Source of the DNA: a virus
Taxonomy: Duplodnaviria; Heunggongvirae; Uroviricota; Caudoviricetes
Direction: 5' to 3' (one strand)
Virus record (IMG/VR): IMGVR_UViG_2695420456_000009
DNA: 14,939 nt
The translations under genes and the position numbers were made by a program. This document shows positions 12,930-13,621 of the stretch, piece by piece (positions within the stretch are counted from its first letter, which is position 1; every line of letters starts with the position of its first letter). The notes beneath the pieces are model-generated. The model had not been told where the DNA came from. It saw nothing but the letters and a program-made list of their open reading frames with translations, and did not search any database.

Positions 12930-12942
12930 GGGGGGGGGGGGG
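12930..12942. repeat. homopolymeric G13 tract
   Basis: Thirteen consecutive G residues about 85 bp upstream of the TerB-like start. Confidence 0.9.
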
Positions 12943-13024
12943 AGCTTACGGAGTGGTCAGTGTGACTTTCTCTGTGGGCAGATCGCTCCCGGGCGTTGGC
13001 TCACCCACCCAAAGGAACGTCACG

Positions 13025-13457
13025 ATGTTTGGTATTTTTGGTAAAAAAAGCCCGCAGAGCGGCAACGGAAATTAAAAAGTTTGAAAAACGCGATCTGGCA
13101 CAGGTGGTGATTAACGCCGCCTACCTGGTGGCCTATGCAGATGGTGAATGTGAGGCTTCCTAGAAAGCGAAGATCGAACAGGTACTGCGTAATCAGCCTG
13201 CGCTGTACGCGTTTACGTCAGAAATTAATGCGATTAGCGCAACCATTATCGGTCAGCTGGATACGAACTTTAAAACTGGTCGTCGTGCGGCGTTACGTGA
13301 GATCGAGGATGTGAAACACGATACGCGTGAAGCGGAAGATGTGCTGGATGTGGCGGTGGCCATTGCGGAGGCAGACGGCGAAATTGAGCCGGAAGAGCGC
13401 AAGGTGCTGGAAGAGATTGCCGGTGTTCTGGGTCTTCGTCTGGAGAATTACCTGTGA
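13025..13457 (+). pseudogene. TerB-like (tellurite-resistance TerB family) gene, disrupted by a frameshift and an in-frame amber codon
   Basis: ATG 13025 opens MFGIFGKK, then the frame is lost at an A7 run (13043-13049). The +1 frame continues ...AATEIKKFEKRDLAQVVINAAYLVAYADGECEAS-TAG-KAKIEQVL...AVAIAEADGEIEPEERKVLEEIAGVLGLRLENYL, with the ADG...E...IA repeats typical of TerB. Confidence 0.6.
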
Positions 13458-13621
13458 CGGTAAAACTGCGCCTGACTGTGGCTGCACTCCTGCTGTTTCT
13501 GGTGGTGATGGTGGATTTCACCAGCAGAATCATGTCGGTGCTGGCGGATGGGGTGCTGGTCTGCGGCATTGTGGTATTGCTGTGGCCGGTGATAAAAAGA
13601 AACAGCCTGCATAATGCTTGA
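13454..13621 (+). CDS. hypothetical small hydrophobic membrane protein (55 aa)
   Basis: GTG start overlapping the TerB-like stop as GTGA; protein VTVKLRLTVAALLLFLVVMVDFTSRIMSVLADGVLVCGIVVLLWPVIKRNSLHNA has two predicted transmembrane segments. Absent from the supplied track (under its length cut-off). Confidence 0.4.
   Translation: MTVKLRLTVAALLLFLVVMVDFTSRIMSVLADGVLVCGIVVLLWPVIKRNSLHNA

Follow-up and report, generated by a model that had tools for sequence, protein, structure and literature searches.

What is a run of thirteen consecutive G residues doing in front of a phage gene that is itself broken twice? The question arises in the window, by which we mean the whole 14,939-nucleotide (nt) stretch of the tailed-phage record IMGVR_UViG_2695420456_000009 analyzed here, where a G13 homopolymer precedes tciA, a TerB-family gene with an extra base in an A7 run and an in-frame amber codon. 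An earlier reading of the letters alone (the original prediction) held that both homopolymers could be slipped-strand switches that make expression phase-variable, or alternatively that they reflect sequencing errors or pseudogenization. We favor the last of these, with a rough probability of 70%: the window derives from a lambdoid Escherichia coli prophage in which a decaying late-operon cargo gene (a moron) lies behind a hypermutable relic tract. Four observations carry this reading, namely the allele series of the tract, the number of genomes in which the lesions are fixed, the way in which tract type and frame state go together, and a relaxed ratio of non-synonymous to synonymous change (dN/dS). 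The elements concerned are the following, with the evidence for each in parentheses.

12930–12942, plus strand: G13 homopolymer (sequence)
12930–12990, plus strand: tciA leader hairpin, 55 nt in its ancestral form (folding)
13012–13016, plus strand: Shine-Dalgarno (SD) motif AAGGA of tciA (sequence)
13025–13457, plus strand: tciA (TerB family) pseudogene (Pfam TerB; PHROG 632; pseudogene call by the Prokaryotic Genome Annotation Pipeline, PGAP; alignment to phages JLK-2012 and Evi)
13043–13049, plus strand: A7 run, a 1-nt insertion relative to the A6 of intact alleles (alignment)
13161–13163, plus strand: amber codon TAG replacing Glu46 (GAG), inside the TerB domain (alignment)
13454–13621, plus strand: tciB (DUF3927), encoding a 55-residue small membrane protein (PF13064; PHROG 1470; PGAP WP_000216649.1)

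The cargo is a known phage moron composed of tciA (TerB family) and tciB (DUF3927), names that derive from the tciABC genes of phage P1. The pair is annotated in phage JLK-2012, with close copies in phages Evi and PPyecE_EH1910, while TciB occurs alone in phages 434 (in the "434B nonhomology" region) and 2B8. The JLK-2012, Evi, and PPyecE loci resemble the window in the two genes, their order, the GTGA overlap between them, the leader, and the position between the Q/tRNA module and nanS-p, at 88–94% identity; in the window copy, A6 has become A7, Glu46 is an amber codon, and G13 stands where these relatives have GGGGGTG. The predicted TerB membership was borne out by a conceptual translation of tciA, which matches PF05099 at 44.3 bits against a cutoff of 24.4. 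When the ATG-frame sequence is repaired it aligns to PHROG 632 over profile positions 1–143 of 143 (230.8 bits), and this full-length alignment identifies the ATG frame as the canonical one. No experimental test of TciA or TciB function was found in the literature searched, and the function of both proteins is an annotation by analogy. Two further matches were not used: a 13-bit PADLOC defence assignment (E = 0.009), and a sub-threshold NCBIfam match to DjlA (28 bits versus 162) that stems from the shared TerB-like domain.

The window contains no uninterrupted TerB-encoding open reading frame (ORF). From the ATG at 13025, translation would run for 16 codons only and end at TAA 13073–13075, just past the A7 run. 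The +1 frame is open to the in-frame TAG at 13161–13163, which lies in the TerB reading frame, and onward to TGA 13455–13457. A TTG at 13029, 4 nt downstream of the ATG, reopens the whole shifted frame as far as TAG 13161, which precedes most of the TerB domain. Translation from this TTG would probably be poor, given a competing ATG with better SD spacing and the dead-end 16-codon ORF that overlaps the TTG start. PGAP labels the gene pseudo, with an "internal stop," in both E2865 (as "tellurite resistance TerB family protein") and 8E. The tciB ORF is intact at 55 codons (PF13064, 62.6 bits; PHROG 1470, 103.9 bits), in agreement with the 55-residue membrane protein originally described; its GTG start at 13454 overlaps the tciA stop, and with its own GGAG 8 nt upstream it may still be expressed.

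Comparison with intact homologs at the same prophage position defines both lesions. Intact tciA of JLK-2012 begins ATG TTT GGT ATT TTT GGT AAA AAA GCC, with an A6 run, and other intact alleles carry AAAAAGAAAA; all intact alleles have GAG at codon 46, so that intact relatives combine A6 or an interrupted run with GAG, whereas the window combines A7 with TAG. Relative to these homologs the window carries one extra A, and the term "+1 frameshift" used in the original prediction is therefore correct. The 95-nt context of A7 recurs identically in 549 complete E. coli genome records and the 88-nt context of TAG in 171; E2865 carries both as well. Because these exact contexts recur so widely, A7 and TAG are neither sequencing errors nor fast switches; they are fixed, inherited alleles. 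Pseudogenization, one of the options originally listed, is thus the favored outcome, and RefSeq already records the gene as an "internal stop" pseudogene.

Could the lesions nevertheless be homopolymer errors of sequencing or assembly, hiding a real gene that is intact? Residual errors in long-read assemblies fall mainly in homopolymers, and some neighboring assemblies of this locus differ by a single G; both points speak for the idea. Yet TAG is a substitution rather than a homopolymer error and is the same in every one of its 171 records, as A7 is in its 549, and G13 itself, with identical flanks, is found in 42 records from different projects, including O26:H11 strain 11368 (NC_013361). In addition, draft-derived IMG/VR contigs and metagenome contigs independently show G8–G12 together with the A7/TAG allele. 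On these record counts we rejected an artefact, which we regard as hardly credible. The surroundings are shared as well: at least 39 complete E. coli genomes, sequenced in many laboratories, contain the 851 nt around the locus at 99.9% identity and with no change in length, among them O26:H11 11368, many O111:H8 strains, and O103 strain RM8385. RefSeq loci of enterohaemorrhagic E. coli (EHEC), such as NZ_AP018808 EL389_RS09460/RS09465, share G13, A7, and TAG with the window and are annotated as a TerB-family pseudogene followed by a DUF3927 protein. The window differs from E2865 by one substitution, located in tciB (13571, G in the window versus A in E2865), and in E2865 PGAP annotates an intact DUF3927 protein, an esterase, a holin, and a lysozyme downstream of the tciA pseudogene.

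The G tract behaves differently from the fixed A7. The run had been placed 85 bp upstream of the gene, close to the gap of 82 nt that we measured between the tract end and the ATG. Its unusual length is confirmed, with 3.6×10⁻⁴ G/C runs of 13 or more expected in the window under an independent-base model and no G/C run longer than 10 found in 1.24 Mb of related prophage DNA except at the tciA-leader tract site. We assembled a tract series of at least 130 loci from scans of IMG/VR and metagenome contigs and from fetched genome loci. The series runs from GGGGGTG (53 loci) and AGGGGTG (34 loci) through G6 and G7 to every length from G8 to G16, with one G13AGG, so that uninterrupted tracts span G6–G16 among related loci. 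Roughly 770 genomes carry the locus; of 59 complete ones sampled at even spacing, 35 have G8 or longer in a single broad peak at G10–G13 (G8, 1; G9, 3; G10, 8; G11, 8; G12, 5; G13, 6; G13AGG, 1; G14, 2; G15, 1). Close relatives differ: FRIK2069 has G10 and FRIK2455 has G9, O111:H8 strains have G13, G14, or G15, and O157:H7 strains have G9, G10, G13, or G14. This range is far beyond a consensus error of ±1 base, and finished genomes display it as well as draft-derived contigs and metagenomes. The tract is therefore truly hypermutable, although single-base differences between individual assemblies call for caution, and slippage is the probable mechanism of length change. When genome contigs were scanned for the leader, the only matches came from Citrobacter braakii and a single metagenome-assembled genome; the tract has its 7-nt ancestral form in both, which adds host range and nothing on expansion.

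Poly-G/C phase variation at simple-sequence-repeat contingency loci is known from Campylobacter, Neisseria, and Haemophilus. Like such loci, the window has a long G homopolymer that varies in length between close relatives. It differs from them in that the tract lies in a 5′ leader, outside any tciA ORF and outside a promoter spacer, in that the downstream gene is dead and has no functional ON state in this window owing to the amber codon and the frameshift, and in that an effect on expression is predicted only. A consensus scan of 12350–14000 found no −35/−10 pair spanning the tract, and the hypothesis of a promoter spacer, which calls for a sigma-70-like promoter at that position, was ruled out. 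A nonsense codon, moreover, cannot be reverted by slippage, so neither tract makes TciA expression phase-variable in this window. The switch proposal thus survives in one part and fails in the other: the G tract is a real hotspot, A7 is not a switch, and the proposed phase-variable expression of tciA does not hold. TciA of the window cannot be made at any tract length, and G13 is a mutational hotspot rather than an operating tciA switch.

Where the tract came from is suggested by the fold of the leader. The ancestral sequence GGGGGUGA (the GGGGGTG region) is predicted to pair with UCGCUCCC and so supply the 5′ arm of the stem at the base of a 55-nt hairpin; this hairpin has a predicted energy of −30.7 kcal/mol (z = −5.1 versus shuffles), and the form in the window −30.1 kcal/mol (z = −3.75). 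In a second leader family, with AGGGGUGA and UCACCCCC or UCACUCCU, the pairing is preserved, the differences being one-sided except for one double change. Across 16 leader variants 92% of cells are paired, with a single double-sided change and a covariation score equal to that of shuffles, the sequences being too similar to one another. No Rfam family was detected in the leader over 12881–13024, either at the gathering score or at E ≤ 1. The T-to-G change that creates an uninterrupted run places a G-G mismatch in the basal stem.

These data can be arranged into a candidate history. In intact alleles the tciA-tciB pair would occupy the cargo slot between the Q/tRNA module and nanS-p and be transcribed from pR′ by Q-modified RNA polymerase, the leader would fold into its 55-nt hairpin, and the gene would start at ATG and encode a protein beginning MFGIF. 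One lineage would have accumulated three lesions. A T-to-G change or the loss of 1 nt would have produced an uninterrupted run (G7 or G6), after which replication slippage could have spread the tract to G6–G16 in different strains. Insertion of an A into A6, giving A7, would have thrown the ATG out of frame and left the 16-codon upstream ORF and, as sole remaining start, the TTG 4 nt downstream. The change of GAG46 to TAG would have occurred in a sub-lineage to which the window and O26, O111, and O103 EHEC belong.

Tract type and frame state are linked. Among 33 distinct tciA alleles, those open from the ATG have an interrupted tract, with phage Evi (A+G11) as the sole exception, and A7 alleles carry G6–G16 except at three loci, which have GGGGGTG. 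Leaving out the nonsense codon, we obtained a dN/dS of 0.03 among ATG-open alleles (synonymous divergence, pS, 0.29) as opposed to 0.37 among A7 alleles (pS 0.03). The tract varies alike before the dead TAG allele (G8–G15) and the open GAG allele (G9–G14), a similarity that does not point to any function-dependent constraint. The data are in keeping with a lineage that lost its normal tciA start and then underwent drift of the leader and the coding sequence and, in one branch, of codon 46.

Several points weigh against this interpretation. The A7 allele of O157:H7 keeps a full open frame from the TTG and is called intact by PGAP; in that serotype the gene may have kept its function and the tract its importance. 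Behind the contrast in dN/dS are about three synonymous and three non-synonymous differences per pair, the pairs are non-independent, and comparisons at low divergence are known to inflate dN/dS. Uninterrupted tracts may go with A7 through common inheritance from one ancestor and not through relaxed constraint, and phage Evi has its long tract before an intact ATG-frame gene. Finally, the folding calculations set out below predict that tract length affects SD accessibility, which would amount to a tract function in still-open alleles. The intact calls themselves have a simple origin: PGAP calls A7 alleles intact unless TAG is also present, because TTG 13029 opens the frame, which is why the pseudogene call for the allele seen here cites an "internal stop" and nothing else, and why the A7 plus GAG allele of O157:H7 passes as intact. 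Hundreds of O157:H7 genomes list an "intact" 142-residue TerB protein (WP_001303509.1) in which the MFGIF N-terminus typical of the family is out of frame. Annotation pipelines thus rescue the A7 allele through the TTG while the canonical ATG is out of frame, and O157:H7 intact calls deserve caution.

The predicted effect on translation is the basis of the main competing explanation, in which the poly-G is a working contingency element, a translational dimmer of tciAB: tracts of G12 or longer would refold the leader and lower translation, and slippage would render tciA/tciB output heterogeneous in a population, at least for open-frame alleles such as those of O157:H7, with tciB the only gene that could be affected in the window. 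In all five sequence contexts folded, the predicted mean SD accessibility is about 0.5 at G8 or shorter and about 0.25 at G12 or longer, where CCUUUC-G(n) is predicted to pair with CCCACCCAAAGG, which adjoins the SD site. The polymorphism from G8 to G16 among closely related genomes (the FRIK2069/FRIK2455 and O111:H8 strains above) also counts in its favor, as does the position of the tract within a strongly folding leader hairpin and the persistence of long tracts in about 450 complete genomes, a figure estimated from the 59-genome sample. The effect is nonetheless only about two-fold and purely computational, the tract lies outside the ORF and any promoter spacer, and expanded tracts are found almost exclusively in the lineage in which the ATG no longer reads in frame. 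The equally broad spread before TAG and GAG alleles tells against it as well, and one-base differences between near-identical long-read assemblies may be consensus errors. We consider a translational dimmer unlikely and retain a relic tract ahead of a decaying gene as the preferred explanation.

The tract has a second property, which concerns DNA rather than RNA. Over 1,221 nt, from Q into the G tract, the window is 100% identical to the PPompW prophages of O145:H28, and in PPompW the element ISEc20 (IS110 family, about 1,449 nt) sits exactly in the tciA-leader tract, in the arrangement CCTTTC-G7, insertion sequence (IS), G5-ATCATCCGGCGA. This copy occupies 4081–5545 of locus L004 in our set (LC567818), for which window positions 12930–12942 are the homologous empty site. 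The right flank of the PPompW copy belongs to a second poly-G site (G9 in loci L022 and L030), which precedes the terminase genes some 8.5 kb farther downstream, and tciAB, nanS-p, and the lysis block that lie between the two poly-G sites are missing. Most of about 20 other ISEc20 copies (L138–L156) are flanked on both sides by G runs, 4–8 G on the left and 1–5 on the right. One filled/empty pair with identical flanks (L064/L145) shows G6, ISEc20, and G5 where its counterpart has an uninterrupted G10, indicating insertion into a pre-existing homopolymer. Judged from these flanks, ISEc20 appears to target long G runs in these prophages; no paper on ISEc20 target choice was found in the literature searched. 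Another interrupted G-rich stretch has also turned into a long homopolymer: where the window reads GCTGGGGTGTGGGTAAACC, the coding sequence of some nanS-p alleles contains a G10 run (GCTGGGGGGGGGGCAAGCC), at about 1291 of L064 (reverse strand), homologous to about 14530–14545 of the window, and this site too is an ISEc20 target.

On these grounds the long G run might act primarily at the DNA level, as a landing pad for ISEc20 and a substrate for G-run deletions, influencing prophage decay (the loss of tciAB, nanS-p, and lysis genes) rather than gene expression. The exact placement of ISEc20 in the PPompW tract with the intervening ~8.5 kb missing, the G runs on both sides of most copies, and the insertion into a pre-existing G10 all speak for such a role. 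But targeting is a consequence of having a G run and does not indicate that the run is maintained for ISEc20; insertion at this particular site is seen in one lineage only; and the target rules are deduced from flanks, a few G's of which might belong to the ends of the element. We regard this as improbable, and extend the same reserve to a composite proposal, in which the poly-G would be a contingency element of EHEC prophages with two outputs, leader refolding with a threshold near G12 and ISEc20 landing. If the composite proposal were true, the first output would dim translation of the TerB/small-membrane-protein pair in still-open alleles (O157:H7), and the second would provide a programmable-looking ISEc20 landing site at which insertion can remove tciAB, nanS-p, and the lysis block, grounding the prophage.

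With a decaying cargo gene behind a relic tract as the favored account, the result is mostly a correction, an apparent "double switch" proving to be a fixed pseudogene in a well-known EHEC prophage module. The module and the pseudogene status are already in RefSeq. The G6–G16 hypervariability, its origin in a leader hairpin, and the use of the tract as an ISEc20 target appear to be undescribed, and the literature searched contained nothing relevant on poly-G in O157 prophages. Long homopolymer hotspots are generally regarded as scarce in E. coli; a tract that ranges from G6 to G16 in several hundred complete genomes could be of use as a marker for fine-scale typing or as a natural reporter of slippage. 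In that G runs seem to attract ISEc20, homopolymer expansion would be linked to IS-mediated loss of lysis genes and, therefore, to prophage domestication.

The setting of the cargo slot is that of the late region of Shiga toxin (Stx)-converting phages, as had been proposed. The neighboring features are the following.

11716–12411, plus strand: Q late antiterminator gene (Pfam PF06323 Phage_antiter_Q, 303.7 bits)
12395–12423, plus strand: pR′-like promoter TTGCAA-17-TATATT at the end of Q (consensus scan only)
12472–12501, plus strand: tR′-like terminator hairpin with a 13-bp palindromic stem (reported by the scan on the minus strand)
12607–12682, plus strand: tRNA with CAU anticodon (ARAGORN; Rfam tRNA, 72.5 bits; PGAP tRNA-Ile in E2865)
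12684–12759, plus strand: degenerate tRNA (ARAGORN alone, as tRNA-Lys(ttt))
12773–12847, plus strand: tRNA-Arg(UCU) (ARAGORN; Rfam, 68.1 bits; PGAP)
12863–12886, plus strand: terminator-like hairpin and T6 after the tRNA cluster (scan: 7-bp stem with 6 GC pairs, then TTTTTT)
13626–13798, plus strand: STnc100/PasD-like prophage small RNA (sRNA) (Rfam RF02076, 100.8 bits versus a gathering score of 47)
13936–14939, plus strand: 5′ part of a NanS-p-type sialate O-acetylesterase gene (DUF1737 and SASA; PF08410, 57.7 bits; PF03629, 51.1 bits)

The order Q, tR′, tRNA cluster, cargo, and NanS-p esterase, as originally read from the sequence, is thus present in full, with two of the three tRNA-like genes called by ARAGORN (12607–12847) accepted by Rfam and PGAP. 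The Q label is also given in the annotation of the near-identical E2865 locus and of the O145:H28 prophage PPompW, and the esterase gene, truncated by the window end, bears the PGAP name "SASA family carbohydrate esterase." In Stx1a phage LC567819 the order is Q, stx1A, stx1B, yjhS (nanS-p), holin, and endolysin, with stx1AB directly upstream of nanS-p/yjhS, and Stx1a phages match the window esterase gene at 95%. According to one review, stx lies between Q and the lysis cassette and is controlled by the late promoter pR′ (PMC8065619). The window shares with Stx phages Q, pR′/tR′-like signals, a tRNA cluster, a cargo slot, and the 95%-identical nanS-p/yjhS; the holin and lysozyme follow in E2865. 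The cargo of Stx phages is stxAB, whereas here it is tciAB, and the Q-to-stx interval of LC567819 also holds genes different from those of the window. Neither stxA nor stxB is in the slot, which holds only the tciA pseudogene and tciB, and the window contains no toxin gene. By analogy with these phages, transcription of the cargo is probably Q- and pR′-dependent, and the promoter-like sequence at 12395–12423 has a position that would fit the lambdoid late promoter pR′. On the plus strand, TTTTGTTGTG follows the palindrome at 12472–12501.

The region between the two signals (12427–12501), which corresponds to the pR′-to-tR′ transcript, gives weak, sub-threshold Rfam matches to OrzO-P, IsrJ, and IsrK, which are Hfq-binding prophage sRNAs; its position is that of the short leader RNA of Q-antiterminated late operons. 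The tRNA-like sequence at 12684–12759 is absent from the Rfam results at the gathering score and from the PGAP annotation, and it aligns, with many substitutions, to argN tRNA-Arg(tcg) of O157:H7 prophages. As a diverged copy of argN tRNA-Arg(UCG) that has probably decayed, it would be a second decaying cargo element in the module.

A recent preprint reports that PasD/STnc100 sits upstream of the esterase, that STnc100 is related to the PasD sRNAs found in prophages of enteropathogenic and enterohaemorrhagic E. coli, and that TerB, RusA, and DUF1627 genes are conserved neighbors of the prophage sRNAs PasA and PasC (bioRxiv 10.64898/2026.05.13.724894). All of these elements were found in the window, where the STnc100 match, between tciB and the esterase gene, has the position that the preprint gives for PasD. 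The early and nin regions of the prophage further contain a DicF sRNA gene at 2005–2056 on the minus strand (RF00039, 76.7 bits) and a hok/sok-type toxin-antitoxin pair at 9174–9323 and 9264–9476 (sok RF01794, 103.9 bits; Hok/Gef PF01848). Upstream of hok, 8227–8985 encodes a 252-residue SBP_bac_11 protein that at the corresponding PPompW position is annotated Paa/AdfO, the porcine attaching-effacing associated protein, an adherence factor and virulence-associated moron.

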